Positions 8,153-64,000 of a DNA stretch of 64,000 nucleotides are shown here, piece by piece. The notes below the pieces were generated by a model that did not search any database, was not told the DNA's origin, and saw only the letters and a list, made by a program, of their open reading frames with translations. How positions within the stretch are numbered: the stretch's first letter is position 1; each line of letters starts with the position of its first letter. The stretch lies in the IMG/VR virus record IMGVR_UViG_3300006752_000018, positions 1-64,000 of that record. One strand, 5' to 3'. The translations under genes were made by a program, and so were the position numbers. The stretch is from a virus.

Positions 8153-8156
8153 TTAA

Positions 8157-24900: not shown

Positions 24901-25141
24901 TTTAATACAAATTAATAATGCTTCAGATGGCGAATACCAAGCACAAGAAATGTTAATATTACATGATAGCACAAATAATGCAGGCGTAAAATCAACAGAA
25001 TATGCAGTTCTGTTTACTGGTAGTGCGGCACTTGCAACATTTAGCACACAAGTTTCAGGGGGCAATATTGAGCTGCTGGCAACACCGTCAACAGCGAACA
25101 CATTGGTTTACAAAGTAGCTAAAACTATGATTACATTGTAA
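18959..25141 (+). CDS. Tail fibre protein (2060 aa): T4 gp37-like N-terminus, beta-helix domain with phycobiliprotein-like insert, HG[FY]xxG beta repeats, C-terminal structural domain
   Basis: The N-terminus KIKHLRSSVAGRAP..EGQLALNTADGKLF resembles the T4 gp37 N-terminus (IQFKRS..AG.RP..EGELAIN). It has SPYVQNCS and RVYTSGT..GDFKVG motifs shared with the other beta-helix proteins. AGGA lies upstream. Confidence 0.85.
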   Translation: MASKIKHLRSSVAGRAPTAGQMDEGQLALNTADGKLFMKKSDSSVREITKQIHDGDTSVSIDESGANGKIVLEADGSNVAEVAAAAMNIKVPVVIEDNDSITIRESSANGTNGVVIKVPESITSTYDFKLPPTAGSPGQIITTDGSGTLSFENPGITSNMIYVDSIVGSDSNDGFIKPLASIKKACEIASENVYVPKVAVTDTKNDVIQLLTLNKTFIQKEVIAYIAYQVANAGGIWNGFTYDSATCERDVGYIVDAVIYDLKFGGNSKSIEAGKKYYLGTTSTQEVIDNQKPQTVAALEYAKHISGDIIRNIALTDDQDGNTNAPFQSAVTQTTDNSYDDGSSSKTAHDDLWDETITILDLGIAQASTLVYGTFNINLISIKIGTGEYLEDNPIIVPDNISIMGDALRSVIIRPQNVQKDIFRIRNAAYMSGFTFRDKLDANGIPTGTYNFAVAFDDPDDHGVSRHSYPGLPVQKTIITASPYVQNCSIISFLGGNGCNVDGSKVFQPNTPTNQIEAENPVAGAAPVQNPSIVGNAFTILSFGGTGYRVSNNAYSQIVSCFQIFCKNGSYAQSGGYLSITNSATNFGTYALRASGFRNEAFEFDRGIIATNGVDGVFQTFDLIGFDRAVTEHYITRFVNSNGDDVTDDYKTSTTTKTFSANSSTVDTVNNKFVITAHGFSNGDRLRYDSNGNPDIFGIYDETYYYVSLINANEFQLYEDQELESLATLGTTSSGTHKFISGDEEFFVNEIKNAHTIYQTIVLAAGSYNFSVGQEITGTVSGNTNNAYVYSWDTNTNTLVVSINQVVVSGVTSYVKFTASSTIDVDADGNTNIAISSIADKTNLHSAKILVRSTLSGGSINNIALLPGFQCFLHRPSIVNSSAHTWEYAGSGTDYNAMPINGGQGIPDYEQYQDLPGRVYTSGTTELGDFKVGKFITAQNRTGNVTFTNKVSIAQLDSLQLSLSDVTIEAISTDVTLGDNDPGGASHGRLTTQLAQRSFMNNRLGDFLDKQVTSSSVPGAVVQLNSSGKINSDLIPPIRTNSSFTLDSFEERLTLFENIPADEVLSGDNIIEAYDQEVLTLNDAKSLVKGETVTQLNSGATGEVKAAISSSTELTLVNVTGTFTTNAADTLSGNTTGALSTYVASTTGSVQAQDNYFLSDDSESQFLIIDDPDDSTVHNFVNGTDVKGANTLAEGTITDYREGVAIFTNTNTLPSGSGYGTADTYTNVTLTGGTGSGAKADITVDGTGTVTVVDLTRGGEGYTSGDTLSAADADLGGRSGGSAFTVDIQAVENRLYLNLTGNNVKFDASVTTNEFIEDNNAITQNINQAGFTTTTFSANAVDNEIDYTDNQVIVTGHGFVNGDPIEYSANGNTEIGGLENGIVYFAKRIDADTFEVYTKYDVSDASQVNFGTSSNGNHLFRLRNVSSAGDRIFLANHGYATGTGVRIIAATPPTGLTDGNFYFVGSVTTNSFTLHTLRNDANESVNGTTQSVVDITAPSSGTTNFREQNVKIIGTINTSSQNVDNYASLNSLNIDATNIVSGIISTTRLGTGTANQNTALYGDGVYKRTVRSITIAENNPISIVGDSVTEGGEEKYFGELEIQVDPIDPEAGGVTYTNFGVAAFNKAQFDITEDGEISVLSTADGGQLDASTLNGQAGSYYLNPENNTRSMPITKGGTNLTGYTQGDILYAGTTLSLNSDSLSKLAIGPDGYVLKSNGTVPVWSNSITLGALDLDELTVDTDTLFVDGTEHRVGINTLTPQVTLDINATDAIRFPVGTTVQRPTAVQGYVRYNTTLGQYEGYDGANWISLQNTGDVDGDTFISTETSPGADNDTIKFFANGVMAAELTETGFGRLDVGDIEINSSYIGTTVSNSNLELRAAGTGVINVQNPLTVDQGADIEGAVTINEAGASVDFRIESNAQTHMLFLDGSADAVGIQTSTPKAPLQVQDVALDTETTTSSGTNAVKIAEWAVADFRTAKVLIQINNASDGEYQAQEMLILHDSTNNAGVKSTEYAVLFTGSAALATFSTQVSGGNIELLATPSTANTLVYKVAKTMITL

Positions 25142-40168: not shown

Positions 40169-43100
40169 ATGTCTGATATAGGTATAGTTGGCATCCTTTC
40201 TGCAAGCGGAACATCGGGTTCTATTGAATTTGAAACTCAATTATCAGAAATTATAGTACCTAATAATTCTATAGTAAGAGTAGGAATTATATCAAATAGG
40301 AAATCAGTAACTTATACTATTGAACAAGATACGGCATCTAATTTAGTAAATGTTCCTGCATTTACTTTTGAAGATTACGGCACAACTGAATCTGGAGACA
40401 ATTTAACTGTCTTAAAAATCGAAACAGATGATGATTACCAAAATACTGTATACAAATTAAAAGCTACTGTTAATGCAGATGTGTATGCTTATAGCAGACG
40501 ATTTGAAATTCGTAGCTCGCCTGTAGGAGCAGCAACATATAACAAGACAGTTAGTATTGACCAACCGAGTGCAACACTTGTTGTATTAGATAATGCTGCA
40601 CAATCCTTTAATATTCCTATATTAAGGACATTTGAAGTAAACAACTTACAACCTCAAGGACAGGTTGCATACACTTCTCCCGGTACGTATACATGGGATG
40701 TACCAAGTGGTGTAACTGAAATTAGTATGGTAGCTATCGGAGGAGGAGGAGCTGGCGGCGGCGCCTACGGAACTCAATTAGGGGCGTTTTGGGGTAAAGG
40801 CGGCGCAGGTGCAGGCCTTGCTTGGGGAACAGCATCAGTAACTTCTGGAGACAGTATAAAAATAGAAGTAGGAGAAGGAGGAGTAGGACAAACAGGAGAT
40901 GCAGGGTTATCCGGACAAACTAGTAGAATATGCCATATGGGAAATAATTGTCAATTTATGGCAGCATGTGGTGGCGGTGGCGGTGGGATTTCAGGTTTGA
41001 ATAACTATGAACCTTTATCTACAGGCGGTCAATACGTTGTAGATAGTGCATTATCTAGTAGCGGCGGCGGCAACGGAGGATCCGGTGGAGGGACTGAGCG
41101 ATCAACTGATTCAGATGGTGCTATACTTGAAGGCTGGCCAGGCGGTGGCGGTGGCACAGCAGGCTACAGTGGCAATGGCGGGTCCGGTGGACCAAGAAGT
41201 GGCATTGCGCCTTACGGACTCGATGGATCCGGTGGCGGTGGTGCAGGTGGATACAGACAATGCGGCGGTGGCACAGGACTTTGGCAAGTTTGCCAACAAA
41301 GTATAGGTGGAAATAATGTAAACGGATATAAAGGTTCAAACGGATCAACAGGTGCATTAGTATATAAAAAATACGGCGCAAACACTTCTCCTAGCACTGG
41401 TTGGTTTGGACACGGTGCTTCAGGGTATGAATGGCCAGGAACTGATGCTGATAAATGTTTTCCAGGACCAAGTGGAGGCGACGGAGCAGTTAGAATAGTT
41501 TGGGGAGGTGGTAGAGAATATGAAGGACAAACAATTCAAACTCCTCAGCATAACGACGATGTATACGAAGTTGAAGATGGAACAACATTAAATTTTAACG
41601 AAGACACTCCTATTATATCTTATAAACTTACAGGCACAATTCCTAATACTGTTGATACTGATGCAATTAATGTTGATAGAGAATTGCAATTTGAATCAGG
41701 ATCTAATGTACAAAATATTGTTATTCCGGTCTTAGATGATGCAATTAGTGATACTGCTGGTTCTAATACAGGAACTTTCACATTTAATTTAACTGCGTCA
41801 ACAGATGAATATACAGTTTCAACCAATACAGCAACCTTAGGTATACAGACTAATCCTAACCCCCCTGTAAGAGAAATAGGATGGCTATCTCCAACATATA
41901 ATATTGACGAAGGAGAAACTATATCTGTTAAATTACTACGTACTTCTATAAGAAATGGCACATCTGACTTAGGGTTACCTATTACTGTATTTTGGAGTAT
42001 TAGGGGAGAAAATGTAGGTGACGATCCAGATGACAGATGGAACACAACTTCAGGATCTACAATTATACCCGCAGGCGAAACCGAAGCGGCAATTAACCTT
42101 AGTATAGCTCCTAATAATACTGAAGCACCTAGTAGTACAAATATAATAGAAATTAACTCTGTTTCAGATGCAAGATATACTGTTACTGGTAATTCACTAA
42201 TTACAATAAACAATTTGTATAAACTTGTAAGAATTGCTAGTAGTGCGATTTTTACAGAGGGCGAAACAGGTAGCGTTACATTATCTAGAGTATATAAAAG
42301 AAACGGTGCAGATGCTACACCAGACGATACTACTGTAATATCTTGGGGTTTTGGTACAGCATTAAACGACAGCAGAGTAACTTTAACAAGTGGCACTGTA
42401 AGTATTGCAGGAACTGCATTAACTAACGATATAAATATTCCTGTTTCATCTACAGCAGGATTACAAACTTCTACATTTAACACAATTAGAATTTTAAATG
42501 CTACAAGCAATTATATAATCGATGATGCTAATAATACAAGCACAATAAGAATTAATGATACTATAGATGAAGTGAAAACAATATCAATATCAACGCCTAA
42601 TGTTTCTGTCGATGAAGGAAACACATTTACTGTAATACTACAGCGAGAACACTTAGTCGATGGAGTTAGTTCCTTATCAGACAGACCTACTATTGCTTGG
42701 ACATTAACAAATGCTGATTCGAGATTTGTTGGTACTAGTGGAGTATCTGCTTGGCAATCTGATGAAACTGATTTATCTATTTCAATTCCTACTGAATTGT
42801 CAGAAATTTATATAGGTGATGCAACGGCTACATTTACTATATATAATCCTAGCTTGTTATATGAAATAGAAGGTAATGATAGTATAACACTAACATTAAT
42901 TGAAAACGATACTGCACCTACTATCGATGTAACATTTGATAATACGATTGTAAGAGGCGGCCAATCTATAATTGGAACAGTTTCTACACAAAGTGTATTA
43001 GATGGTAGTGCATATAAGTATTATATAAATCATAATTCTACTAACAATTTTGATTTTACAAGCGATACTTCTTCTCCAATATCATTTAATATTGTTAATA

Positions 43101-44860
43101 CTTTAACAGATTATTATACATTTACTGGAAATGGACTTTCAAGTTTTAATAACCCTAATTTAACATTAATAAGAGGACGTACATATAGATTTAGTGTCAA
43201 TGCTCCTGGACATCCTTTTTATATTAAGACTGATGCTGTTGCAGGTAACGTAAATTTATACCCTACTGGGGTAACCGGTCAAGGTGTTACATCAGGTGTT
43301 TGTGAATTTACCGTTCCATTAAATGCTCCTAATAGATTATATTATCAATGTAGTGCGCACTTAGATATGGGCGGACAATTAAATATGGTGGATGAATCAA
43401 TTCGCACAGAACCATTTTATATTCAAGAAAATTCTGGATCATTTACTATTGTGACTACAGCAGATTCTGAAACAATAGAAAATAAATTTAGTATAAGTAT
43501 CCTAGATGGACTAGGTAATACAGTTCATACAACAGACGAATTAACTATTAAACCTACTGTTGAATTTAGAATACCCACTTTAGTATACGACGAAGGTACA
43601 GTCGTTACTGCTAATATAGATTGTGCTTCACAGGGCACCCATTCATATGCAGTGTCGGGTACAAATATAGATTCAGGAGACTTTATTACAGCTATTTCAG
43701 GTACATTTACTCCTCAAGTAAATGCTACATATTACGGATTTAGTTCGGCTTTGCAATTTCCTATATCAAACGATAATATTTCTGAAAGTGTGGAAAGTTT
43801 TACAATTACAATAACTGATCCAGACGGAAATGTGTTTGACTCAAATAGCATTACAATAAACGATACTAGTGAAACCCCGTCAACAGGTACAAAGTCATTT
43901 ACATCAAGTCAAGAATGGGTAGTACCCGGCGGTGTTAGTAGTATTAGCGCAGTAGTAATCGGAGGCGGTGGTGGCGGATCCGGACATATGGTTTCAGGCA
44001 CTAATCCTTATCCTCAAACACAGGGTTCAGTAGATATTACTAACACAGGTTCCGGTGGTGGAGGTGGCGGAGGTGCAGTTGCTTGGGCAGAGAGTATTCC
44101 AGTAACAGCAGGTGAAACTATATCAATCACTGTAGGAGCGGGTGGCAGCGCAGGTACAGCAATTCAAGAAAATGGCGGCAACGGAGGTGAAAGTAATATT
44201 AGACGGAGTACTACAAAACTTTTAGCAGCCGGTGGCGGCGGCGGTGGTAAGCAAACATGGGCAACATTTACACCCTTCGCCAATAGCACTGGAGGTAATA
44301 CAGATAACGGCGGAGCAGGAGGAAGTAACAGAGTTTACGATGCTACGGTAATTGCTTCTGGTAACACTGGCGGCGGTGACGGCGGAATCGGAGGTCATAC
44401 TGACGGGCAACGTGGCGGTGGTGGCGGTGGTGCTGGAGGTTATCAAGGATCTGGTGGATCTGGCGCAGGTAGAGTAACTTCTAATCCAGGAAACGGTTCA
44501 GGTGGAGGCGGTGGCGGAGCTCACGAATCTGCTAACTTTTATTACACTTCATATGGCCAAGGCTATTATGATCCTACAACCGGCGGCGGAGGCGGCGGAG
44601 TAGGAGTTAACGGTGTAGGTGTTAGTGGTAATGCTGGTTCACAAGGTGCATCTAGTTCATATACTTCTGACAAAAATGGATCAGGAGGGTCAGGCGGCGC
44701 CGATGGTTCTGGAACTGGTGGGGAGTTTGGCGGCGGCGGTGGCGGTTCGTCAGGAGGCAATAGTACAGGTATACCTAATGACATAGGGGCAGCCGGTAGT
44801 AGAGGAGTAGTACGTGTTATTTGGGGTGCAGGGTATTCTTATCCAAATAATGCTATCTGA
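40169..44860 (+). CDS. Large adhesin-like virion protein (1563 aa): two Gly-rich domains, Calx-beta/Ig-like repeats, cupredoxin-like domain
   Basis: PGTYTWDVP..IGGGG..GAVRIVWG; several DEG repeats; GHPFYIKT..YYQCSAHLDM; a second Gly-rich domain ending GVVRVIWG. Confidence 0.75.
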   Translation: MSDIGIVGILSASGTSGSIEFETQLSEIIVPNNSIVRVGIISNRKSVTYTIEQDTASNLVNVPAFTFEDYGTTESGDNLTVLKIETDDDYQNTVYKLKATVNADVYAYSRRFEIRSSPVGAATYNKTVSIDQPSATLVVLDNAAQSFNIPILRTFEVNNLQPQGQVAYTSPGTYTWDVPSGVTEISMVAIGGGGAGGGAYGTQLGAFWGKGGAGAGLAWGTASVTSGDSIKIEVGEGGVGQTGDAGLSGQTSRICHMGNNCQFMAACGGGGGGISGLNNYEPLSTGGQYVVDSALSSSGGGNGGSGGGTERSTDSDGAILEGWPGGGGGTAGYSGNGGSGGPRSGIAPYGLDGSGGGGAGGYRQCGGGTGLWQVCQQSIGGNNVNGYKGSNGSTGALVYKKYGANTSPSTGWFGHGASGYEWPGTDADKCFPGPSGGDGAVRIVWGGGREYEGQTIQTPQHNDDVYEVEDGTTLNFNEDTPIISYKLTGTIPNTVDTDAINVDRELQFESGSNVQNIVIPVLDDAISDTAGSNTGTFTFNLTASTDEYTVSTNTATLGIQTNPNPPVREIGWLSPTYNIDEGETISVKLLRTSIRNGTSDLGLPITVFWSIRGENVGDDPDDRWNTTSGSTIIPAGETEAAINLSIAPNNTEAPSSTNIIEINSVSDARYTVTGNSLITINNLYKLVRIASSAIFTEGETGSVTLSRVYKRNGADATPDDTTVISWGFGTALNDSRVTLTSGTVSIAGTALTNDINIPVSSTAGLQTSTFNTIRILNATSNYIIDDANNTSTIRINDTIDEVKTISISTPNVSVDEGNTFTVILQREHLVDGVSSLSDRPTIAWTLTNADSRFVGTSGVSAWQSDETDLSISIPTELSEIYIGDATATFTIYNPSLLYEIEGNDSITLTLIENDTAPTIDVTFDNTIVRGGQSIIGTVSTQSVLDGSAYKYYINHNSTNNFDFTSDTSSPISFNIVNTLTDYYTFTGNGLSSFNNPNLTLIRGRTYRFSVNAPGHPFYIKTDAVAGNVNLYPTGVTGQGVTSGVCEFTVPLNAPNRLYYQCSAHLDMGGQLNMVDESIRTEPFYIQENSGSFTIVTTADSETIENKFSISILDGLGNTVHTTDELTIKPTVEFRIPTLVYDEGTVVTANIDCASQGTHSYAVSGTNIDSGDFITAISGTFTPQVNATYYGFSSALQFPISNDNISESVESFTITITDPDGNVFDSNSITINDTSETPSTGTKSFTSSQEWVVPGGVSSISAVVIGGGGGGSGHMVSGTNPYPQTQGSVDITNTGSGGGGGGGAVAWAESIPVTAGETISITVGAGGSAGTAIQENGGNGGESNIRRSTTKLLAAGGGGGGKQTWATFTPFANSTGGNTDNGGAGGSNRVYDATVIASGNTGGGDGGIGGHTDGQRGGGGGGAGGYQGSGGSGAGRVTSNPGNGSGGGGGGAHESANFYYTSYGQGYYDPTTGGGGGGVGVNGVGVSGNAGSQGASSSYTSDKNGSGGSGGADGSGTGGEFGGGGGGSSGGNSTGIPNDIGAAGSRGVVRVIWGAGYSYPNNAI

Positions 44861-45261: not shown

Positions 45262-48200
45262 ATGGCAGAATTTAATATATCACGATTTAAATACGTTTGG
45301 AAAGGTCCGTGGGCTAACGGTACTTCATTTAGTCAAGATGATATTGCAGTCGTAGGTGGTAAAATTTATGTATGTCTCATAGGGCATATATCTTCGCTTT
45401 CTTCATTCGACGATGATCTAAACGCACTCGACCAGTATGGCAATCCAGAACCAAGATGGGTGTTAATGGCAGAAGGTCAACGCTGGAGAGGAAATTGGGC
45501 TGCTAGTACAAAGTATGAAACAAGTGAACTTATTAAATATGGCGCTACAATTTATAGCTGTATTGCAGGACATACAAGTGCAGCTTTAACAACAGATGGA
45601 GTTGCAGCAGACATTGAAAAGTGGACATTCATTGCTAAAACTTCTGATTGGAGAGCAAGTTGGACTGTATCTCGCAGCTATTTTGTAGGCGATGTGGTTA
45701 CATATAATGGTGCTATATATCAGTGTATACAAGAACACACTTCAAGGTCAACTACCGAAGGATTAGAATCTGATCAAGAAAAATGGCTGTTAATTAATTC
45801 TTCTGATAATTATAGATTTACATGGGGCACTGGAAATAGATATGTACTAGGAGATGTTATAACATATGGTGGTAGAATATACCGCTGTACTACAGGACAT
45901 ACATCTAATGCTAACGAATTGTTAGGCTTGCCTATTGATTCTAGCAACTGGGAAATTGTATTAGACAGTACACGTTACAGAGGTAATTATGCAAATGACA
46001 CAGTATATCTACCTAATGATATTATAAAATGGAATAACAGTTTATTCATTACACAGGCAGTTGTAAGTAATTCAACATTTACACCAGGTAACTGGACACT
46101 TTATATTCCTGGAACAGGGTACGAAGCAGCGTATGATAAAACATTATCATATCAAATAGGAGATATGGTTTTATACGGAGGTTATACTTATAGAAGTATT
46201 AGTAACTTAAATGTTGGAAATATTCCTTCTACTACTAGTGCGCAATGGACATTAGTGTCAACAAGTTACAACTTTAGAGGACAATGGACTGCTGATACTT
46301 TATATAAAACCGGTGATGTAGCACGAGATGGCGGCGACTTATATGTTGCAACACAAGATACATCATCTTATCCGATTGAAGAACCAACGACTATTACATA
46401 CGAAGTTACAGTTAAAGAAGTAAACAGTGCAAACAGATATCATGTCAATGACATTCTTACTCCTAATTTATTTTTAGTAACAGGTAACACATATATAATT
46501 GACCAGACAGATGTTACAAACAATACACATCCAATGTACTTTAGCACTATTGCTAACGGGCATCATGTTGACGGTTCTTATAATTACCTTGCAGGACCTG
46601 TATATTTACTGGACGATATTGAAACTACACCTGAATTATATATAAGCGGCTTTAGTGCTGCTAATTCTAGAAAAATAAGAATTGAACCGGAATTTAATTG
46701 GGGAGAATTTTATCCTGTATGTGCAAATCATAGCGGCATGTACAACTTTTCATCAATAACACCTACTAATGATAGCACAAGTTGGGATAGAATAGTTAGA
46801 GGACAAGCATGGAAAGGTCCTTGGAATTCTACAAATAGATATGCACTAGGTGATGTATCAACCTATGCAGGAACAGCATATACTTGTGTACAAGCTCACA
46901 GAGGCGACGACAGTAGTTTAGTACGACCGGATATAGATGCTGACAACAGTTATTGGGAAGTGCTTATTTTAGGTAGTGCTACTAACGTTCTTATTAATGT
47001 AGGTGATATAAAATATAGAAGAGACACTGATGATTTAGCATTTCCTATCGGCACTGCTGGTAATACTCTAAAGGTCGATAATACAGCCCCGTCATTACCA
47101 CCTATTGAATGGTCTGCATTCCAGGCTACACCTAAAGTTTACTATGTTAGTTTACTCGGAGCAGATACAATACAAAATGGTTCCGAAGGAGCACCATTTA
47201 GGACAATTAAATATGCATGTGAGTATATAGCAGCTGATGCTCCAGCTAGATCTCCTGCAACTCTTTTCCTCAAGACCGGAACATTTGAAGAAGAATTACC
47301 CATTGTTGTTCCAAGAGATGTTGCAATTGTAGGAGACGAATTACGAAGTGTAGCAATTAAACCAGCTACTGGATTTGAAACTGCAAATATGTTTTATATG
47401 TCTAATGGCAGCGGGTTACGTAATTGCACCTTACAAGGGTTAAACGGGACACTAGGAGATCTAAACGAATACTTAACAAGAAGACCAACCGCAGGTTCGT
47501 ATGTAAGTTTAAATCCTGGAACAGGTCCAAACGACCAAACTGCTTGGATTGATAGTAAATCTCCTTATGTGCAAAATGTTTCAGCATTTGGTACAGGATG
47601 TACTGGAATGAAAATTGACGGAGCTCTGCACAACGGAGGCTATAGATCAATGGTTGCAAACGATTTTACACAAATCTTAAGTGACGGCATTGGTTACTGG
47701 GCAAGCGGTGAAGGCAGATCAGAACTTGTTAGTGTGTTTACCTATTATTGTCATATAGGATATCTTGCAACAGGTGGCGGTAAATTACGTGCTACAAATG
47801 GTAACAATTCGTATGGTCAATTTGGATCAGTAGCAGAAGGTGTAAATGATGAAGAATTGCCTATCACTGCTACATTAAATAACAGAGCTAAAGAAGCACA
47901 AGCATCTGAAGTTTACTCAGACGAAAATGGAAAAATTATCGGCCTATCCTATAGTCATGCTGGTCAAGATTACACATCAGCACAATATATAATTACAGGT
48001 TCGGGCGTAGCAGGTAACTTAGAAGCACAGCATACTAGATATAAAGGTGTTTCAGAAATTAGAATTAAAGAACCAGAAGATTCTAGTAACATAGGCGGCG
48101 CTGATTATAGAAGAATAGAAAACAACGCTCAAATTGGTGGCTTAACTAGTATTACGTTATCAGCTTCAGAAATTATAGATGATAATAGTTATGTCGGTAT

Positions 48201-50400
48201 GAATATTTTTATTAAAGCCGGTTTAGGTGCAGGACAATGGGGCAAAATAAGTGCATACGATCCTAGTACGAAAGTTGCTACTATAGAAAATATGTGGGGA
48301 CAAACTGGTTGGAATACATTTGTTGCAGGCAAAGCTATAAGCACAACACTTGACGGTACTACTCGTTATGTAATTGAACCATATTTTGACATAGAAGATC
48401 CTGAATATAATTCATTTACTCAAGCAACTGGTAGTTTTAAAGAATTAGGTGCTGTCGCTTCTAACGGAAATGTGAATATTGCTACAACATTAGGTTCAAA
48501 TGTTGTTGCTTATTCAACAACAGGACAGACTTGGATCAATACAACGTTGCCTGCAAGTGCTGATTGGAAATCTGCAATTTGGACTGGCATTAAGTTCATG
48601 GCGTTTGCTACTACAGGAGAAGTAGCAGAATCATCAGACGGTATTAACTGGGCAACATCTAGTGCAGCACCAAATCTATCATACCAAGATGTTAAACGGT
48701 ATAACGCTACATTGATTGCTGTTGCAACTGGAACACAAAACGTAGCTGTATCTACTGATAGCGGTGTTTCTTGGTCGCAACAAAATACAGGTAAAGCAGG
48801 AGGCTTTAGCTTTGTAGCAGTTGACTCTAACAGATGGGTTATAGCTGATACAACTGGTGTTGTATATGATAGTGTTGATAATGGTGGCAGCTGGAGTGCG
48901 TTATCCGGAGGAAGTATTTTATCAACCTTAGCAGGATATGAATTAACAGACCTTGATGGCGGCTCTAATGCATTTGTTGCATGTGCTAGAGATATAGGCG
49001 GTATAAATCCGAGTTTACCTTTATACACAAGAAGCGTATATAATGAACCTTTACAGTTTAGTGTAGGTAATCATTTTAAAGGTGCAGAAGCTGATCCAAA
49101 TGCAATTAGTGTAGGGGTATGGCGAATAGACATAAACAATGGCTTAATGATAGCAGTAGCAAATAACGGCGTTTTAAATGTTAGCCAAGATGCAATTAAC
49201 TGGAGAGCTATTACACCTATCGGAGGACAAACTTGGTCAGCACTTTCATATGTTGAATATATCGGCGACGGTAATAGTCCTTACAGTGCATGGGTATTAG
49301 TTAACAATACAAGTTCTTCAAATATGCAATTCTTAGAGTATGGTGCAAGGGCTGTTGTTAGGCCCAATATAAAATCTAACAGAATTGACGGATTCTTTAT
49401 TTTAGACCCAGGCAGTAATTATCAAAATCCACCTGCATCAGAAATAATAGACAGTCAGTCTGTCACAGATGCACAGTATGATATGAGACTTGCAAGCGGT
49501 GTCTTAGCACAGCCTAGTATATTAGATCCTGGATCATTGTATTTTAAAACAAGTGTAACTATAGACGGCGATGGATTTGCAGATCAATTTCCAGTTGGCG
49601 GTATAGTCCAAGTTAGTAATTTGCTTAGAGCACCTGGACCAGGTGACGCTATAACATTTACAGGATTAGATAAACAATTTTATATACAAAAAATTAGTAA
49701 TTTACAAGGTACAGAACCTGCATTGTCTGCAGAATTCCAAATTACACCGCCGTTAGATATTAATGAAGCACCGGTGCATAATACATTTGTTAACATACGT
49801 CAAAACTTTAGTCAAGTACGATTAACTGGACACGATTTTTTAGACATAGGGTCCGGTAACTTTACTTCAACAGCATATCCACAAAGATATACAGAAGGAT
49901 TTACATCAGATAACGAAGTAAGACAAAATCAAGAAACAGCAGGATCCGGTGGTGGACGAGTATTTTATACGAGTACAGACCAAGACGGAAACTTTAGAGT
50001 TGGTGAATTGTTCAAAGTTGATCAGGCAACTGGTACAGTTACAATTAGTGCTTCACAGTTTGATTTGTCAGGCCTTGATGAACTTAGAATCGGTGGTATT
50101 GTACTAGGTGGTACAAACGCTGTCGTTAGAGAATTTAGTACAGATCCTACATTTGTAGATAATAGTGATAATGTTGTGCCTACACAAAAAGCAATAGCTG
50201 CATATATTACTAGTCGTATTTCAAGTGGCGGATCAATAATTAACGCAAACGCATTGCTTACAAGCCAATTACGTGTCGACATACAAGGAATAAATTTGAA
50301 TGAAAATGCCACAGCAACACAAATTAATGTGGATGCTGCAATTAATCTGCAAAGTTATTCAGGGTTATATATAATGTCACAATTGTTTACGGCGCCTTAA
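45262..50400 (+). CDS. Tail spike/fibre protein (1712 aa): 8 CBM5/12-like Trp repeats, cupredoxin-like insert, beta-helix, Asp-box beta-propeller
   Basis: W.G.W...T.Y..GD.V.YGG..Y.C repeats; THPMYF..CANHSGM; GDELRS and SPYVQNVS; Asp-box motifs STDSGVSW and SVDNGGSW at about 48400-49340. Confidence 0.8.
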   Translation: MAEFNISRFKYVWKGPWANGTSFSQDDIAVVGGKIYVCLIGHISSLSSFDDDLNALDQYGNPEPRWVLMAEGQRWRGNWAASTKYETSELIKYGATIYSCIAGHTSAALTTDGVAADIEKWTFIAKTSDWRASWTVSRSYFVGDVVTYNGAIYQCIQEHTSRSTTEGLESDQEKWLLINSSDNYRFTWGTGNRYVLGDVITYGGRIYRCTTGHTSNANELLGLPIDSSNWEIVLDSTRYRGNYANDTVYLPNDIIKWNNSLFITQAVVSNSTFTPGNWTLYIPGTGYEAAYDKTLSYQIGDMVLYGGYTYRSISNLNVGNIPSTTSAQWTLVSTSYNFRGQWTADTLYKTGDVARDGGDLYVATQDTSSYPIEEPTTITYEVTVKEVNSANRYHVNDILTPNLFLVTGNTYIIDQTDVTNNTHPMYFSTIANGHHVDGSYNYLAGPVYLLDDIETTPELYISGFSAANSRKIRIEPEFNWGEFYPVCANHSGMYNFSSITPTNDSTSWDRIVRGQAWKGPWNSTNRYALGDVSTYAGTAYTCVQAHRGDDSSLVRPDIDADNSYWEVLILGSATNVLINVGDIKYRRDTDDLAFPIGTAGNTLKVDNTAPSLPPIEWSAFQATPKVYYVSLLGADTIQNGSEGAPFRTIKYACEYIAADAPARSPATLFLKTGTFEEELPIVVPRDVAIVGDELRSVAIKPATGFETANMFYMSNGSGLRNCTLQGLNGTLGDLNEYLTRRPTAGSYVSLNPGTGPNDQTAWIDSKSPYVQNVSAFGTGCTGMKIDGALHNGGYRSMVANDFTQILSDGIGYWASGEGRSELVSVFTYYCHIGYLATGGGKLRATNGNNSYGQFGSVAEGVNDEELPITATLNNRAKEAQASEVYSDENGKIIGLSYSHAGQDYTSAQYIITGSGVAGNLEAQHTRYKGVSEIRIKEPEDSSNIGGADYRRIENNAQIGGLTSITLSASEIIDDNSYVGMNIFIKAGLGAGQWGKISAYDPSTKVATIENMWGQTGWNTFVAGKAISTTLDGTTRYVIEPYFDIEDPEYNSFTQATGSFKELGAVASNGNVNIATTLGSNVVAYSTTGQTWINTTLPASADWKSAIWTGIKFMAFATTGEVAESSDGINWATSSAAPNLSYQDVKRYNATLIAVATGTQNVAVSTDSGVSWSQQNTGKAGGFSFVAVDSNRWVIADTTGVVYDSVDNGGSWSALSGGSILSTLAGYELTDLDGGSNAFVACARDIGGINPSLPLYTRSVYNEPLQFSVGNHFKGAEADPNAISVGVWRIDINNGLMIAVANNGVLNVSQDAINWRAITPIGGQTWSALSYVEYIGDGNSPYSAWVLVNNTSSSNMQFLEYGARAVVRPNIKSNRIDGFFILDPGSNYQNPPASEIIDSQSVTDAQYDMRLASGVLAQPSILDPGSLYFKTSVTIDGDGFADQFPVGGIVQVSNLLRAPGPGDAITFTGLDKQFYIQKISNLQGTEPALSAEFQITPPLDINEAPVHNTFVNIRQNFSQVRLTGHDFLDIGSGNFTSTAYPQRYTEGFTSDNEVRQNQETAGSGGGRVFYTSTDQDGNFRVGELFKVDQATGTVTISASQFDLSGLDELRIGGIVLGGTNAVVREFSTDPTFVDNSDNVVPTQKAIAAYITSRISSGGSIINANALLTSQLRVDIQGINLNENATATQINVDAAINLQSYSGLYIMSQLFTAP

Positions 50401-50437: not shown

Positions 50438-50453
50438 TAGGGGAGAGTGAACC
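50438..50453 (+). promoter_or_regulatory. Conserved 16-nt leader/RBS element TAGGGGAGAGTGAACC (copy 2)
   Basis: Identical to 25168-25183. Confidence 0.75.
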
Positions 50454-50455
50454 GA

Positions 50456-53400
50456 ATGGCTGAATTTAAACTCGGTAGAATCAGATTTATCTGGAAGGGT
50501 ACCTGGACCGCAGGTACTGAATATGTACGTGACGATATTGTATCGTATGGTGGTAAAACATTTATTGCCATCCTTGCACATACAGCAAGTAGTGATCTTG
50601 AAACAGATCTTAATGATGTCCAACCAAAATGGGAACAGTTCGGCGACGGTTTAGCATGGCGCGGCGATTGGAATGTTGCAACATATTATAAAGTAAATGA
50701 CATTGTTAAAAACGGCGGTTTCTTGTATATATGTAATACAGGACACACGTCTAATGCTGATGTCTTAATAGGTCTTGAAGGTAATCTTTCAAACTGGGAT
50801 TTGTTTGCTGAAGGTTTAAATTACGCAGGAGCCTGGAGCACAAACACAAAATATAAAATCAATGATATTATAGCATATGGCACAGCTACGTATATTTGTA
50901 CACAAGCGCATACAAGTGCTGCAAATATTGTAGACGGGTTAGAAGTTGATGATTTAAAATGGTCAGTCTTTTCAAGAGGTATGGATTGGAAAGGTGTTTG
51001 GACAACAAGCACACGTTACAAAGAGTACGATGTTGTAAATTATTACGGAAGAATTTACATGTGCTCTACCGGACACACATCACAAGCTACTGTTGCAGCA
51101 GGTTTAGAAGATGATATTGTTAACTGGAATTTAATGTACGATGGCATTAATTACAGAGCAGCGTGGGCACCTACTACACGTTATACAGTAAACGATGTTG
51201 TAAAAAACGGACCTAGCTTATATATTTCCACAGCAGAACACACATCCACCGGGACATTTGCTGCTGATTCATCTAATTGGGATGTATATTTACCCGGCAT
51301 AGAATTTGAAGATTCATGGAGCAATAGCACAATTTATCAACCTGGTGACATTGTAACATATGGTGGATATACGTATATCGCAAAATCAGATCACAGCAAC
51401 AGTGTACCATCGACAACACCTGCAGACTGGGATTTATTTATAACTGGATTTAATTTAGAAGGCGACTGGGACATTGCTACAAATTATAAAGTAGGTGATG
51501 TTATAAGATTAAACGGTTACACATATCTTTGTAATGCTGATAACGTCGGCAATATTCCGCCTAATGCAAGCTACTGGGACAAACTAAACGAAGGCTTCTA
51601 TTGGACTAGTGCATGGGCTGATGCAACGTCATATGTTGCAGGAGACGTGGTTAATTTTAGCGGAAATGCATATGTTTGTATCTTGGCACACATAGCAGAC
51701 ATTGCGTCAAACAAACCAGATTTAGATACAAATGGTACATATTGGAATATTGTAAGTTCAACTGCGGAAGAAAATACACTTACAACTGACGGCGATATAT
51801 TATATTATGCAGGGTCAGGACCGGCTAGATTACCAATAGGAAATCCAGGACAGGTATTAGCAGTTAATGCAAGTGCAACTGCGCCTGAATGGATTGATTT
51901 TGGATTTGTTGAAAACGTATTTTACGTAGCACCAAACGGAACAGATGCAGACGGATTTGGAACAACCTTAGATAGACCATATGCTAGTGTAGCATATTGT
52001 ATGAATTACATTTTAACTTCAACTAGAAGACACAACGCAAAGGCATTATTAGATGCAAATGTAGATTTCATTGCAGCAGAAGTTGTAGAATGGACTGATT
52101 ATCAGATTGCAAATAGTATTGCACCATTTACAAATGCATTTACATATGATAAGGCTTTGTGCTTGCGAGATATGAAAAAGATTGTAAAAGCAGTAGGATA
52201 TGATATATCACATGGCGGAAATGTTGAAACAAGAAAAACAGCGCAATCATATTTTACCGCAGCAGGTGCAAGCTATATTCTTGGACAAGAAACAGAAACT
52301 GTTGCATCTATCAATTATAGTTTAGAAGTTGTTGATGCTGTGTTAAGCAATGTTGCTCCAGCTACAAACTATCAAACTGAAAACAGTGTTGCAACACCTG
52401 TAACACAAACTATTGACGGTACATTGACAGAAGAAGCTGATGCAGAAACTACATATGATACTTTAGTAGGGTTAATTACTGCATCTATTACAGCTGGCAA
52501 TACAAATTCTTTACCTGCAGAACAAGTTGTTAATACAACTGTATTTGTTAAAACAGGTGAGTACTTAGAGCAATTACCAATTTCTATTCCTGCACATACA
52601 GCAATAGTAGGCGACGAGTTACGTTCTACAAAAATTAAGCCTGCTTCAGGCAATGAAACAGCAAATATGTTTTATGTAAGAAATGGTTGCGGAATAAGAA
52701 ACTGTACACTTGCAGGCTTAACAGGATCACTTAGCGGAGCAAATGCGTTTGGTACAAGTCGTCCTAGTGCAGGCGCCTATGTAAGTTTAGATCCAGGTGA
52801 AGATGAAACAGATAGACTAGTTTGGATTCATAGTAAATCACCATACATACAAAATGTGTCAACATTTGGCACAGGCTGTATAGGGTTAAAAGTAGATGGC
52901 AACTTACATGATGGTGGTAACGACTCAATTGTTGCAAACGACTTTACACAAATCTTGAGCGATGGCATTGGATATTGGGTTACAAACTTAGGTAGATCAG
53001 AGCTTGTTAGTGTGTTTACATACTACAACCATATTGGTTACCTTGCAGAAAACGGTGGTAAGATTCGTGCTACTAACGGTAACAACTCATATGGTGCATT
53101 TGGATCAGTAGCAGAAGGCATTGACTCAACAGAAGTGCCTAATACAAGTACAGTCAATAACTACTATACAGAAGCAAACGTTGCAGAGACTATTACCGAC
53201 GGTGATAGAATTTTAGCACTAGAATATGCAAACTGTGGTGTATCATATACAACTGCAACTTATACATTTATTGGTGAAGGTATTGACGTAGCAGTAGGCG
53301 CAATAGATACAAATGACGGCGGTATATTTGAAATAAGGTTGTTAAATAGTGCAGGAAATTATGGTGGTGCTGATTACCAAACATCTTTAAATAATGCACA

Positions 53401-54718
53401 AACAGGCACAACTACATCTATTACATTGTCAGCAACTGATACAGCAAATAGTGCTGATTATATTGGCATGGCTGTATATATTGAAGACGGTGTCGGTGTT
53501 GGACAGTACGGGTATATTGATACATATAATGCAGGTACAAAACTAGCAACAATCAAAAAAATGAGCGACGACTCGTCTGGATGGGATCATTTAGTTCCAG
53601 GTACTGCGGTTGAAGCTGCACTAGATCAAACATCTCAATATAGAGTTGAACCTAGAATATCAATCGGCGATCCTGTGTCAGGAACAACTGCACGAGCAAG
53701 AGTTAAAGTTGCAAGCGGAAAAATATTCCAAATAACATTATTTGATCCAGGCAACGGATACGATCCACTTAACCCGCCAACAGTAACTATAACAGATCCT
53801 ATTAATACAATTGATGCACCATTAGAAGTAAGAATAGGTGACGGGGTATTAGGACCGCCTACCTTTAGTGATAGAGGTACAGGATACGAAACATGTTCAA
53901 CAGCTATTGACGGCGACGGTTATGCTGATGTAAAACAAAGCGGAAAATATTTATATGTAGAAGCATCTGTAAATGAGCCTTTACCTGGTTCAAACGTACA
54001 AATTGCAGGCGACTCGACTATATATAAACTAGTTGAAGTATTTGAACTTCAGGGATCTGGACCATATTCTGCTAGATTACAAGTAAGCCCAGAAATACCG
54101 GTAGACTCAGAGCCAGCGCATGGCGCACAGGTAACACTACGAATAAGATATTCTCAAGTACGTTTGACAGGACACGATTTCTTAGATATAGGTACTGGTA
54201 ACTTTACTGATACTAACTATCCTGGAATTCCTGCAAATGCGCCTGACGCAGATGCTGAAACAAGAGAGTCTGGCGGTGGACGAGTATTCTATACAAGTAC
54301 AGACCAGGATGGTAACTTTAGAGTTGGCGACTTGTTTACAGTTGAACAGGCAACAGGTACTGCTACACTAGATGCTGATAACTTTAGTGTTAGTGGTCTA
54401 CAAGAACTACAACTTGGTAGTGTTAGCTTAGGCGGTACAAGTGCTACAATTAGAGAATTTAGTACAGACGGAACTTTTGCAGCAGATAGCGACAACATTG
54501 TTCCTACCCAAAGGGCTATAAGAACGTATATTAACGCACAAATTGGCGGTGGTGGTGCTACACTAAACGTTAACACATTAGTTGCCGGTAATATACAAAT
54601 TACAGGAAATACAATTTCCACAACTGATAATTCTACAATTATTGTAGGAGCAACAACAAACTTCACCCAAGGGGTATCTGGAACACCATTAGCGTTACAG
54701 TACTTTTTAAACGCATAG
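50456..54718 (+). CDS. Tail spike/fibre protein (about 1420 aa), paralogue of 45262: 8 CBM5/12-like repeats, beta-helix with phycobiliprotein-like insert
   Basis: ATG 50456 (MAEFKLGR) matches the paralogue start MAEFNISR, so it is preferred over GTG 50447. Shared blocks include VANDFTQILSDGIGYW and SQVRLTGHDFLDIG. Confidence 0.85.
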   Translation: MAEFKLGRIRFIWKGTWTAGTEYVRDDIVSYGGKTFIAILAHTASSDLETDLNDVQPKWEQFGDGLAWRGDWNVATYYKVNDIVKNGGFLYICNTGHTSNADVLIGLEGNLSNWDLFAEGLNYAGAWSTNTKYKINDIIAYGTATYICTQAHTSAANIVDGLEVDDLKWSVFSRGMDWKGVWTTSTRYKEYDVVNYYGRIYMCSTGHTSQATVAAGLEDDIVNWNLMYDGINYRAAWAPTTRYTVNDVVKNGPSLYISTAEHTSTGTFAADSSNWDVYLPGIEFEDSWSNSTIYQPGDIVTYGGYTYIAKSDHSNSVPSTTPADWDLFITGFNLEGDWDIATNYKVGDVIRLNGYTYLCNADNVGNIPPNASYWDKLNEGFYWTSAWADATSYVAGDVVNFSGNAYVCILAHIADIASNKPDLDTNGTYWNIVSSTAEENTLTTDGDILYYAGSGPARLPIGNPGQVLAVNASATAPEWIDFGFVENVFYVAPNGTDADGFGTTLDRPYASVAYCMNYILTSTRRHNAKALLDANVDFIAAEVVEWTDYQIANSIAPFTNAFTYDKALCLRDMKKIVKAVGYDISHGGNVETRKTAQSYFTAAGASYILGQETETVASINYSLEVVDAVLSNVAPATNYQTENSVATPVTQTIDGTLTEEADAETTYDTLVGLITASITAGNTNSLPAEQVVNTTVFVKTGEYLEQLPISIPAHTAIVGDELRSTKIKPASGNETANMFYVRNGCGIRNCTLAGLTGSLSGANAFGTSRPSAGAYVSLDPGEDETDRLVWIHSKSPYIQNVSTFGTGCIGLKVDGNLHDGGNDSIVANDFTQILSDGIGYWVTNLGRSELVSVFTYYNHIGYLAENGGKIRATNGNNSYGAFGSVAEGIDSTEVPNTSTVNNYYTEANVAETITDGDRILALEYANCGVSYTTATYTFIGEGIDVAVGAIDTNDGGIFEIRLLNSAGNYGGADYQTSLNNAQTGTTTSITLSATDTANSADYIGMAVYIEDGVGVGQYGYIDTYNAGTKLATIKKMSDDSSGWDHLVPGTAVEAALDQTSQYRVEPRISIGDPVSGTTARARVKVASGKIFQITLFDPGNGYDPLNPPTVTITDPINTIDAPLEVRIGDGVLGPPTFSDRGTGYETCSTAIDGDGYADVKQSGKYLYVEASVNEPLPGSNVQIAGDSTIYKLVEVFELQGSGPYSARLQVSPEIPVDSEPAHGAQVTLRIRYSQVRLTGHDFLDIGTGNFTDTNYPGIPANAPDADAETRESGGGRVFYTSTDQDGNFRVGDLFTVEQATGTATLDADNFSVSGLQELQLGSVSLGGTSATIREFSTDGTFAADSDNIVPTQRAIRTYINAQIGGGGATLNVNTLVAGNIQITGNTISTTDNSTIIVGATTNFTQGVSGTPLALQYFLNA

Positions 54719-63208: not shown

Positions 63209-64000
63209 ATGTCAAAGAAAAAACTCTCTACGTATATTTTTAACCCAGGGCGAGGCGTTTTAGAAAATGTCGTTCCAAATGCATACTCATTAATCGAGTC
63301 AAATAAAGAATATATCAAAGACGAAGCAGTTGAATACATTAATTACAGGATTGCATTAGACACAGGTAACGACGATAATCCTGATGCATCGGCACAACTA
63401 GCAGCAAATAATAATTGGATTAAACGAGAATTAAAAGAATGGATACAAACTGAAGCTGACGCAGCCCAGTTATCTTACACTCCTACTGATGCTTCATATA
63501 CAGGCGCAACTGGTGTTTTAAATATAACAATTGGTAGTCACAGTCTTTCTGTTGGGGATAAAATTAAAATTGCCATAGGTGGCATAACATTTACCTGTGA
63601 AAAAGATAACAATGCAACATTACATCCATACCCACGTGAATCCGGTGTGGCAAACATTACAGGTAACGATCCGTACGCTCATAATTTAATTGAAATTACA
63701 GCAACAGATGCTACATCAATTACAATGAATGTAGGTATATCTTCGGATACAAGTGTTCATACATTTTTTAGTGCGTTAGATGATGCAGTATCAACACCTT
63801 TTTATGACTATACATATAATGAAGAATTTTGGGATACATTGTTAGATGATATTGTTGATGGCATAAAATTTGACGTACGATACGGAGGAACATATAGTAC
63901 AAATGCTGCAACACGTTTACTTTGGGACGATGAAACTTCTCTTGTAGCAGGAAATAGAGCACCGCTACAACTTGTTTTTGACGAATTAGAAAATATATAT
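63209..64000 (+). CDS. Structural protein, 3'-truncated (>=264 aa), with nested globin-like helical modules
   Basis: Absent from the ORF track because it has no stop in the window. It reads open as MSKKKLSTYIFNPG...NKEYIKDEAVEYI...IVDGIKFDVRYGG...ENIY. Confidence 0.8.
   Translation, partial: MSKKKLSTYIFNPGRGVLENVVPNAYSLIESNKEYIKDEAVEYINYRIALDTGNDDNPDASAQLAANNNWIKRELKEWIQTEADAAQLSYTPTDASYTGATGVLNITIGSHSLSVGDKIKIAIGGITFTCEKDNNATLHPYPRESGVANITGNDPYAHNLIEITATDATSITMNVGISSDTSVHTFFSALDDAVSTPFYDYTYNEEFWDTLLDDIVDGIKFDVRYGGTYSTNAATRLLWDDETSLVAGNRAPLQLVFDELENIY

Follow-up and report, generated by a model that had tools for sequence, protein, structure and literature searches.

A diverged relative of the phycobiliproteins, with a conserved candidate pigment-attachment site, is inserted in phage tail-fibre proteins

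The helical insert carried by a tail-fibre protein of an uncultured marine phage is confirmed. On the joint reading of sequence comparisons and predicted structures it is a divergent relative of the phycobiliproteins with which cyanobacteria harvest light, and it appears to have kept their pigment-attachment site. In cyanobacteria and algae phycobiliproteins serve as antenna proteins, and a few cellular relatives have recently been found; we found no description, in the literature searched, of a large conserved branch of them in phage adsorption machinery. The fibre gene lies in a stretch of 64,000 nucleotides (the window; positions 1 to 64,000 of IMG/VR record IMGVR_UViG_3300006752_000018), whose relevant features are as follows.

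18959..25141, plus strand: second virion fibre protein, 2060 aa, host of copy 1 of the domain (PHROG phrog_5342 'tail fiber protein', E 5e-188)
19553..20065, plus strand: phycobiliprotein-like domain, copy 1, with Cys247 (codon 19697) in C-E-R-D, the start of C-E-R-D-V-G-Y-I-V-D-A-V-I-Y-D-L-K-F-G-G-N (jackhmmer E 6e-46; AlphaFold; Foldseek)
45262..50400, plus strand: paralogous fibre protein without the insert, a natural empty-site control (alignment; domain search)
50447..54718, plus strand: tail-fibre or spike-like virion protein, host of copy 2 (ORF list; 1423 aa from GTG)
50474..51886, plus strand: N-terminal array of about eight CBM5/12-like Trp-rich repeats (Pfam PF02839)
51995..52540, plus strand: phycobiliprotein-like globin-fold domain, copy 2, residues 517-698 (jackhmmer envelope, AlphaFold, Foldseek, VIA-align, hhalign)
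52157..52171, plus strand: L-C-L-R-D (Cys572, Arg574, Asp575), aligned to phycobiliprotein Cys84, Arg86 and Asp87
52250..52300, plus strand: Tyr602 (52250-52252) and Thr618 (52298-52300), lost alongside Cys in degenerate copies
52538..53674, plus strand: beta-helix body with G-D-E-L-R-S at its start, 55% identical to paralogue residues 667-1047
53681..54706, plus strand: C-terminal fibre domain common to the paralogue, 43% identical to its residues 1361-1709
63209..64000, plus strand: start of a gp7-like baseplate protein of 2453 aa that runs past the window end (profile search of the phage record; translation)

The reading frame at 50447..54718 matches PHROG phrog_9851 'tail fiber protein' (E 1e-214) and, by tblastn, tail-fibre genes of cyanophages and pelagiphages; its real start is probably ATG 50456 rather than the GTG, since the paralogue begins MAEF.... 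Its Trp-rich array matches PF02839 in eight stretches (E 1.5e-40), and the PDB matches of that array to chitin-binding modules are weak. The peptides on which the original prediction was built lie in frame 1 of 52031-52498, inside this frame, the codon of Cys572 being 52160-52162. The insert stands after the cap helix of the beta-helix and before the first rung, and both copies have a short cap helix upstream (..YCMNYI.. or ..KKACEIA..) and a first rung with a common G-D-x-L-R-S downstream. The paralogue at 45262..50400, in which jackhmmer found no match to the domain, can be aligned on both flanks of the insert (55% identity, 698-1076 against 667-1047) and has about 15 residues in its place; the two copies share an insertion site that is empty in the paralogue, as had been claimed.

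The AlphaFold model of copy 2 (pLDDT 93.3, pTM 0.88) and an independent model of copy 1 (pLDDT 88.3) both predict a globin-like fold, in which helices A/B, E, F, G and H are present. Foldseek, from which phycobiliprotein or globin matches had been anticipated, placed phycobiliproteins first for both models: the top ~48 matches of copy 2 and the top 50 of copy 1 (TM up to 0.61) are phycobiliproteins throughout, with TM values of 0.45-0.61 over the two copies. VIA-align, which is independent of Foldseek, brought copy 2 closest to allophycocyanin (Z 12.8), phycoerythrin (12.7) and the ApcE bilin domain (11.8, at an rmsd of 2.5 A across 114 residues), followed by sensor globins (~10) and haemoglobins (6-7), although middling Z scores are common for helical folds. 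The X/Y helices, correctly supposed to be missing, are indeed passed over by the alignments, which begin at column 27 of the phycobiliprotein profile and at residues 23-50 of the chains. These comparisons of models support the view that the insert has a globin fold and that, among solved structures, phycobiliproteins come nearest to it.

The sequence evidence for this homology agrees with the structural evidence, yet is weaker. Profile-profile alignment of the family with 11 phycobiliproteins (hhalign: Prob 71%, E 3.7e-5, 105 columns) sets the phage Cys on Cys84, column for column along the chromophore site of helix E, in keeping with the first interpretation of Cys-x-Arg-Asp as a phycobiliprotein-type site. 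In the PDB, the matches of the single domain are nearly all phycocyanin beta (E 0.12-1), while 18 of the 19 matches of the family profile are phycocyanin alpha (E 0.055-2.8) and span K-C-x-R-D-x-G-Y-x6-Y-x-L-x2-G-G-[NT]; NCBIfam models for phycocyanin beta (E 1.2e-3, 18.8 bits where the cut-off is 279), ApcB (0.011) and ApcA (0.012) also respond. The original prediction needs correcting in that the curated Pfam model does not recognise the domain: PF00502 matched neither the insert nor the whole protein at E<=1, and a search of the phage record with it gave nothing at E<=10. The phycobiliprotein strings cited in that prediction are authentic: AACLRDMEIILRYVTY occurs in alignments to C-phycocyanin beta from the PDB as well as in cpcB of a Synechococcus, and ATVQAIQAMKEVTASLV in apcB of the same genome. 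Overall, models and alignments leave fold-level homology to phycobiliproteins well supported.

Like the phycobiliprotein subunits (CpcA/B, ApcA/B, CpeA/B, ApcE; PF00502), its best structural matches, the phage domain combines a predicted globin-type helix arrangement with K-C-x-R-D-x-G-Y...Y-x-L..G-G on helix E, which aligns to Cys84, Arg86 and Asp87, and with a G-helix stretch that recalls the 'TVQAIQAMKEV' region of ApcB. Unlike them, it has neither X/Y helices nor a Pfam-model match; the alpha-beta assembly residues are not kept, Asp replacing the Arg of Y-L-R that is invariant in all phycobiliprotein subunits compared here; Asp586 and Tyr602 are additional invariant residues; it is embedded, singly or in tandem, in virion proteins rather than forming free alpha and beta subunits; and its chromophore is putative. 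BBAGs (bilin biosynthesis-associated globins) and photoglobins, described by Rockwell et al. 2023, are non-antenna relatives of phycobiliproteins; CXRD, the bilin motif of phycobiliproteins and BBAGs, occurs in BBAG-1/3 and CXQD in photoglobins, and BBAGs need no lyase to attach bilin (PMC10151467). Compared by this published description, the phage domain has the BBAG-type CXRD Cys motif and, in a minority of copies, a C-K-Q-D that recalls the photoglobin CXQD. BBAGs are small cellular proteins in bacterial haem oxygenase/FDBR clusters, whereas the domain was found on phage DNA only. Heme-free sensor globins (RsbR N-domain, pXO2-61) and globin-coupled sensors are also globin-fold modules within larger proteins (VIA-align Z 8-10.6), but they score below phycobiliproteins and share no motif with the phage domain, which has no conserved His.

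The conservation of the motif among phage homologues, singled out beforehand as informative, proved to be near-invariant: across 1,583 copies Cys is kept in 96%, Arg in 95% and Asp in 99%, and CxRD stands in 94% of the 1,407 fully aligned copies, at an overall identity of ~30%. No conserved His or second Cys was found across the 1,583 copies, and every one of 153 proteins (153/153) has at least one Cys-bearing copy. Among 50 copies without Cys, conservation falls from 97% to 52% for Arg, from 100% to 66% for Asp, from 99% to 68% for Tyr602 and from 90% to 46% for Thr618, a joint decay that indicates one functional site; Asp586, Asn592 and Tyr567 do not change, indicating that the site decays as a single unit. 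The window supplies an instance in the gp7-like baseplate protein, whose copy starting at 63800 is degenerate (Cys to Trp, Arg and Asp gone), and which bears a canonical K-C-E-R-D copy beyond the window, at record position 64184-64561. Metagenome contigs have no variants in the C-L-R-D codons and only 4 in the whole domain, so that this comparison has no power. The domain stretch is contained in an RNA-library run, a presence that is no proof of transcription.

Two copies had been described in the window and both are real, but the picture of a pair has given way to one very large phage repeat family, comprising 779 protein clusters and up to 36 tandem copies in one giant virion protein, the arrays residing in proteins of 2,000-6,400 residues. 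In tblastn searches of 50,697 phage records, copy 1 matched 355 and copy 2 matched 115, all from Synechococcus or Prochlorococcus phages (the siphovirus S-SKS1 is among the domain-bearing records) except one uncultured 'Marine virus' with no named host. A degenerate DNA pattern run over 185,579 species genomes gave 21 matches. None was in an isolate genome; every match lay on a contig from a metagenome-assembled genome of aquatic origin, the taxa were mixed, and these contigs are probably phage DNA assigned to the wrong bin. The window's own lineage (genome ~330 kb) may not be a classical cyanophage, as psbA, hli and cpeT were not found in its five records, which are partial genomes.

We propose, conditionally on the predicted fold and the alignments, that the insert is a divergent globin of the phycobiliprotein branch, a module that has lost the X/Y assembly helices and been set into the cap at the N-terminal end of the beta-helix in a tail fibre. 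The phage-specific family to which it belongs has members that stand alone, like this one, and others that form chains, with as many as 36 modules in giant proteins of baseplate and fibre. The module would have kept a Cys84-type chromophore site, namely Lys-Cys-x-Arg-Asp on the E helix with the co-varying Tyr and Thr. The fibre protein would fold late in infection, in a cell containing free bilin made by the host or by a phage haem oxygenase and bilin reductase; the Cys thiol would attack the bilin A ring, either by autocatalysis, like that of ApcE and BBAGs, or with the help of phage CpeT where present, with Asp gripping the pyrrole nitrogens and Arg/Lys the propionates, and the outcome would be a covalently bound pigment on the adsorption apparatus of the virion. 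What the analysis shows is the predicted fold, the homology signal, the conservation and joint loss of the site, and the distribution, whereas bilin binding and any light response are inferences; we consider bilin binding at the predicted site plausible, at slightly less than an even chance, and no report of pigmented virions was found in the literature searched.

The distribution of bilin-related genes bears on this proposal in several ways. Most phycobiliproteins require lyases. The domain and cpeT occur together in S-PM2, where cpeT lies 1.4 kb upstream of the giant domain-bearing protein, and in P-HM2; an invariable pairing is ruled out by the domain-bearing S-SKS1 and DSL-LC03, in which cpeT was not found, and cpeT would be unneeded if bilin were attached without a lyase, as in BBAGs. 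Among 50 related IMG/VR records, all fragments (7-67% complete), FDBR occurs only in the largest, a relative's 237-kb record with a haem oxygenase and bilin reductase (HO+FDBR) cassette, the other 49 being 7-50% complete; that cassette is >40 kb away from the closest copy of the domain in this record and ~108-120 kb from the fibre-gene copies. The pelagimyophage Mosig has a homologue of the fibre and a bilin cassette, and the domain is absent, so that the cassette must serve another purpose at least there. Phage haem oxygenase and bilin reductase genes have been termed 'still enigmatic' (PMC11480375), and some phages bearing them seem not to infect phototrophs.

A sizeable though lesser probability attaches to structural exaptation, whereby a phycobiliprotein-derived module would serve as a rigid bead or spacer and Cys-Arg-Asp-Tyr-Thr would be a ligand-free, buried hydrogen-bond folding core. 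Tandem chains that reach 36 copies, within proteins of 2,000-6,400 residues, would suit a spacer, as would the domain's occurrence without cpeT in S-SKS1, DSL-LC03 and the five records of the window's lineage, the confident modelling of the apo sequence (pLDDT 93) and the replacement of true-phycobiliprotein assembly residues, with Asp for the invariant Arg of Y-L-R. A folding core accounts less readily for a lone Cys that 96% of copies retain although overall identity is ~30%, which is unusual for a purely structural residue in an extracellular protein, or for a conserved set that is precisely that of the bilin-contacting residues of phycobiliproteins; moreover, Asp586 and G-G-N persist as the site decays, and hence the site must be separately selected. 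We regard as improbable a different Cys chemistry, be it another ligand, a metal or a disulfide, thioether or thioester cross-link by which the fibre is hardened or assembled: the invariant Cys does co-vary with Tyr and Thr, and covalent cross-links occur in other phage and adhesin proteins, but the domain has neither a conserved His nor a second Cys with which to bind haem or metal, a Gln motif of the thioester type was not observed, and the bilin-site motif and its spacing are matched across 22 residues. Chance resemblance in an unrelated helical bundle bearing C-x-R-D, which the marginal sequence E-values against phycobiliproteins (0.001-3), the silent Pfam model and the frequency of middling Z scores among helical folds might invite, is very hard to credit when phycobiliproteins rank first for both models, with both aligners and by three sequence methods, the remaining matches being globins, and when the K-C-x-R-D-x-G-Y-x6-Y-x-L-x2-G-G spacing is identical. 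By itself the four-letter C.RD is explicable by chance, and a third instance in the window (48982, in the propeller of the paralogue at 45262..50400) is unrelated to the domain; the 22-residue pattern, its conservation throughout the family and the predicted fold exceed chance.

Should the domain indeed bind bilin, virions might bear a covalent pigment on baseplate and fibres as a light sensor that gates adsorption, a further step that we consider unlikely on present grounds. Adsorption is described as light-dependent for S-PM2, P-HM1 and P-HM2 and as proceeding in the dark for P-SSM2 and P-SSP7 (PMC6628666). The domain is present in the former three phages and absent from the latter two. If true, light gating would explain the light-dependent adsorption of S-PM2, P-HM1 and P-HM2 and would give phage cpeT, haem oxygenase and bilin-reductase genes a purpose. 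To these questions the window contributes a natural pair of paralogous fibres with and without the domain, and a lineage in which cyanophage marker genes were not found and of which a relative makes its own bilin. Since the pigment-attachment site appears to have been kept, carriage of bilin by virus particles can now be tested, and the domain becomes a testable candidate for the reason why some cyanophages need light to adsorb, for the substrate of the phage bilin lyase CpeT, and for the reason why phages carry haem oxygenase and bilin reductase genes.

The original prediction of a phycobiliprotein/globin-like domain with a C-L-R-D-M motif in a tail spike (52031-52498) quoted peptides that are all present in a single open reading frame, while a regular expression run over all large reading frames finds three C.RD motifs in the window; the four-letter motif alone is within chance, so that the case depends on its surroundings. 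The features concerned are:

50447..54718, + strand: 1423 residues from a GTG, the true start probably being the ATG at 50456; carries copy 2 of the domain (residues 517-698), with the C-L-R-D Cys at residue 572 (codon 52160)
18959..25141: carries copy 1 (19553-20065), the second C.RD, with Cys247 (codon 19697)
45262..50400: insert-free paralogous fibre protein; the third C.RD, at 48982 in its propeller, is unrelated to the domain
63209 (start), same phage record: gp7-like baseplate protein with two further domain copies, one degenerate from 63800 (Cys replaced by Trp, Arg and Asp lost) and one canonical (K-C-E-R-D) just past the end of the window

The protein bearing copy 2 opens with roughly eight CBM5/12-like repeats (Pfam E 1.5e-40); after these come the insert, the body of the beta-helix and, as the fourth part, a C-terminal fibre domain. 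Its paralogue is 38% identical to it at the N-terminus, 55% between residues 698-1076 and the paralogue's 667-1047, and 43% at the C-terminus, and in place of the insert it has just some 15 residues; in both insert-bearing proteins the module follows a short cap helix and is itself followed by the first rung, ahead of a shared G-D-x-L-R-S. The aligned flanks thereby bear out an insertion site common to both copies and empty in the paralogue. Elsewhere among the fibre genes, two cupredoxin-like (type-1 copper) stretches, at 46400-46800 in ORF 45262..50400 (..T-H-P-M-Y-F.. ... C-A-N-H-S-G-M-Y) and at about 43000-43400 in ORF 40169..44860 (..G-H-P-F-Y-I.. ... C-S-A-H-L-D-M-G), would be, from their residues, metal-site domains plugged into fibre proteins. 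The latter ORF (1563 aa) has long Gly-rich (G-G-G-G-x-G) regions at each end, in S-CAM1 the annotation 'polymorphic membrane protein' is given to relatives of the fibre genes next to it, and a NodU/Nol-like carbamoyltransferase (60001-61782; PHROG E 5e-164) lies within the baseplate/fibre gene block.

The AlphaFold model of copy 2 is all-helical and confident (pLDDT 93.3, pTM 0.88), and its Foldseek matches in the PDB are phycobiliproteins from rank 1 to about 48 (probability 1.0, TM 0.45-0.56, E from 6.6e-3), the first listed match of another kind being myoglobin at rank 49. Copy 1, modelled separately to guard against bias from the unusually phycobiliprotein-like C-L-R-D-M of copy 2, gave a model (pLDDT 88.3) whose top 50 matches are all phycobiliproteins (TM up to 0.61), so that the predicted models of both copies rank this family first. 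VIA-align, which is independent of Foldseek and compared 48,161 representative chains, placed copy 2 next to far-red allophycocyanin (Z 12.8), phycoerythrin (Z 12.7) and the ApcE bilin domain (Z 11.8, rmsd 2.5 A over 114 residues), followed by sensor globins and photocobilin (Z about 10) and haemoglobins (Z 6-7). By the method's own guidance a helical fold is distinctive only from a Z of about 13, which makes these values borderline taken alone; the order of the predicted-model matches, phycobiliproteins before bacterial sensor globins before haemoglobins, is nevertheless coherent.

Sequence comparisons are each marginal singly but concordant jointly. With phmmer, 19 of 21 PDB matches of the insert are phycobiliprotein chains (18 phycocyanin beta, one ApcF; E 0.12-1.2), and NCBIfam returns phycocyanin beta (E 1.2e-3), ApcB (0.011) and ApcA (0.012). 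A profile of 36 diverse instances from the window and IMG/VR loci, all less than 55% identical, finds phycocyanin alpha in 18 of 19 matches (E 0.055-2.8), with which it shares K-C-x-R-D-[VI]-G-Y-x6-Y-x-L-x2-G-G-[NT] at identical spacing. Against a profile of 11 phycobiliprotein genes from one Synechococcus genome, hhalign reports a probability of 71% (E 3.7e-5, 105 columns) and aligns the domain Cys to phycobiliprotein Cys84; the alignment begins at column 27, past the N-terminal X/Y helices, in agreement with their proposed absence. The Pfam phycobilisome model (PF00502) does not match the domain, which is thus a separate family of the same superfamily branch rather than a PF00502 member. We hold both the fold, as modelled, and a distant homology with phycobiliproteins to be well supported and highly probable.

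The two copies first described are real, yet they belong to a large repeat family rather than forming a two-copy oddity. Among 1.84 billion representative proteins, phmmer matches 779 clusters at E<=1e-3, of which 180 remain at E<=1e-30; most are proteins 1,000-6,400 residues long, in which as many as 34 stretches match. An iterative search built on the best 150 matches yields 1,583 instances, with a maximum of 36 per protein. Across these, the expected CxRD conservation is evident (Cys572 96%, Arg574 95%, Asp575 99%), together with Tyr567 (82%), Gly577 (77%), Asp581 (78%), Asp586 (99%), G-G-N 590-592 (65-80%), Tyr602 (98%) and Thr618 (86%).

Phycobiliproteins usually hold their bilin at a CXRD motif, whose Cys is joined to it covalently while its Arg and Asp make bonds to the chromophore; the motif also occurs in the bilin biosynthesis-associated globins (BBAGs) 1 and 3, and BBAGs attach bilin by themselves, whereas photoglobins have CXQD (Rockwell et al., PMC10151467). 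The phage domain shares the CXRD form, found in 1,322 of 1,407 fully aligned copies. Comparison with 50 copies lacking Cys separates two groups of positions.

Conservation in copies with and without Cys
Arg574: 97%, 52%
Asp575: 100%, 66%
Tyr602: 99%, 68%
Thr618: 90%, 46%
Lys571: 55%, 24%
Asp586: 99%, 98%
Asn592: 80%, 84%
Tyr567 (Tyr or Phe): 93%, 90%

By this pattern of joint loss, Cys-Arg-Asp-Tyr-Thr behave as one unit under selection of its own, as expected of a ligand site. The hhalign register, of low confidence in this part, puts Thr618 where the G helix begins, presumably near residues 128/129, which touch the bilin in phycocyanin structures. Bilin binding is the best single explanation of the domain, a reading that we put forward tentatively from alignments and models; close behind stands a purely structural exaptation, somewhat less probable. 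Haem is unlikely, as no His is conserved across the 1,583 instances.

Copy 2 matches 115 and copy 1 355 of 50,697 deposited phage records, all of Synechococcus or Prochlorococcus phages except one uncultured 'Marine virus' record; the whole copy 2 protein, unlike the domain, has matches in phages of Pelagibacter, Pseudomonas, Gordonia and Vibrio as well. Across 185,579 species genomes a degenerate motif pattern turns up just 21 times, never in an isolate; the contigs concerned all come from aquatic metagenome-assembled genomes of mixed taxa and are probably mis-binned phage DNA. Profile searches of whole genomes gave the following counts, in which S-SKS1, outside Kyanoviridae, partly breaks the confound with phage lineage.

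Domain copies and cpeT in selected phages
S-PM2, cyanomyovirus: 9, cpeT present
P-HM2, cyanomyovirus: 5, cpeT present
DSL-LC03, Kyanoviridae: 4, no cpeT
S-SKS1, cyanosiphovirus: 1, no cpeT
P-SSM2, cyanomyovirus: 0, no cpeT
P-SSP7, cyanopodovirus: 0, no cpeT
Syn5, cyanopodovirus: 0, no cpeT
Mosig, pelagimyophage, Kyanoviridae: 0, no cpeT

The window's record (92 kb) is rated 28% complete by CheckV and its relatives 7-67%, which implies a lineage genome of about 330-350 kb; the parts available contain T4-like baseplate genes. Near-identical versions of the copy 2 gene occur in seawater metagenomes of over 10 separately registered studies (2017-2025). In three seawater metagenome runs, contigs match 52106-52150 and 52537-52557 with the 386 bases between 'same length, diverged', pointing to a co-occurring strain in which this domain has diverged strongly between conserved flanks. 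Neither psbA/psbD, hli nor cpeT was found in five lineage records, partial genomes of up to 237 kb each, so that here, as in S-SKS1 and DSL-LC03, the domain is seen without cpeT and does not always accompany it. In the largest relative (237 kb), genes for haem oxygenase and bilin reductase lie side by side, situated (L131, stretch 118000-130000 of its record, positions 3477-9748) amid GMP-reductase/IMPDH-like, Hsp20, ClpS and curli-type CsgF and CsgG genes; the reductase is 53% identical to that of pelagiphage Mosig and 26-31% to cyanophage PcyA. The markers missing from these partial records and the Mosig-like reductase suggest that the host may not be a cyanobacterium; if so, bilin would be supplied by the cassette of the phage itself. 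Mosig, which has the cassette and no domain copy, speaks against any simple link between the two.

Adsorption of P-HM1 and P-HM2 fails in darkness, for which light-sensitive receptors and/or tail fibres have been suggested, whereas P-SSM2 and P-SSP7 do adsorb without light (PMC6628666); S-PM2, as cited there, likewise fails to adsorb in the dark, independently of host photosynthesis. In the searches made here the domain is present in all three light-dependent phages and in neither dark adsorber; as this match covers five phages, which amount to some four independent points, it serves as a lead rather than as a test. The cpeT gene of S-PM2 is on the same strand as a giant fibre gene with these domains, 1.4 kb upstream of it. 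The S-PM2 RefSeq record (NC_006820.1:162500-177500) places 16 tRNA features inside the 11.3-kb giant 'short tail fiber' CDS, which bears a tRNA-style locus tag; the record is probably faulty in its coordinates or annotation here. What phages use their hemO and bilin reductase (FDBR) genes for has been called 'still enigmatic', BBAG-like globins being one possibility (PMC11480375). Chromophore and light response of the domain are hypothetical; the domain itself is a new phage family in the phycobiliprotein/BBAG branch.
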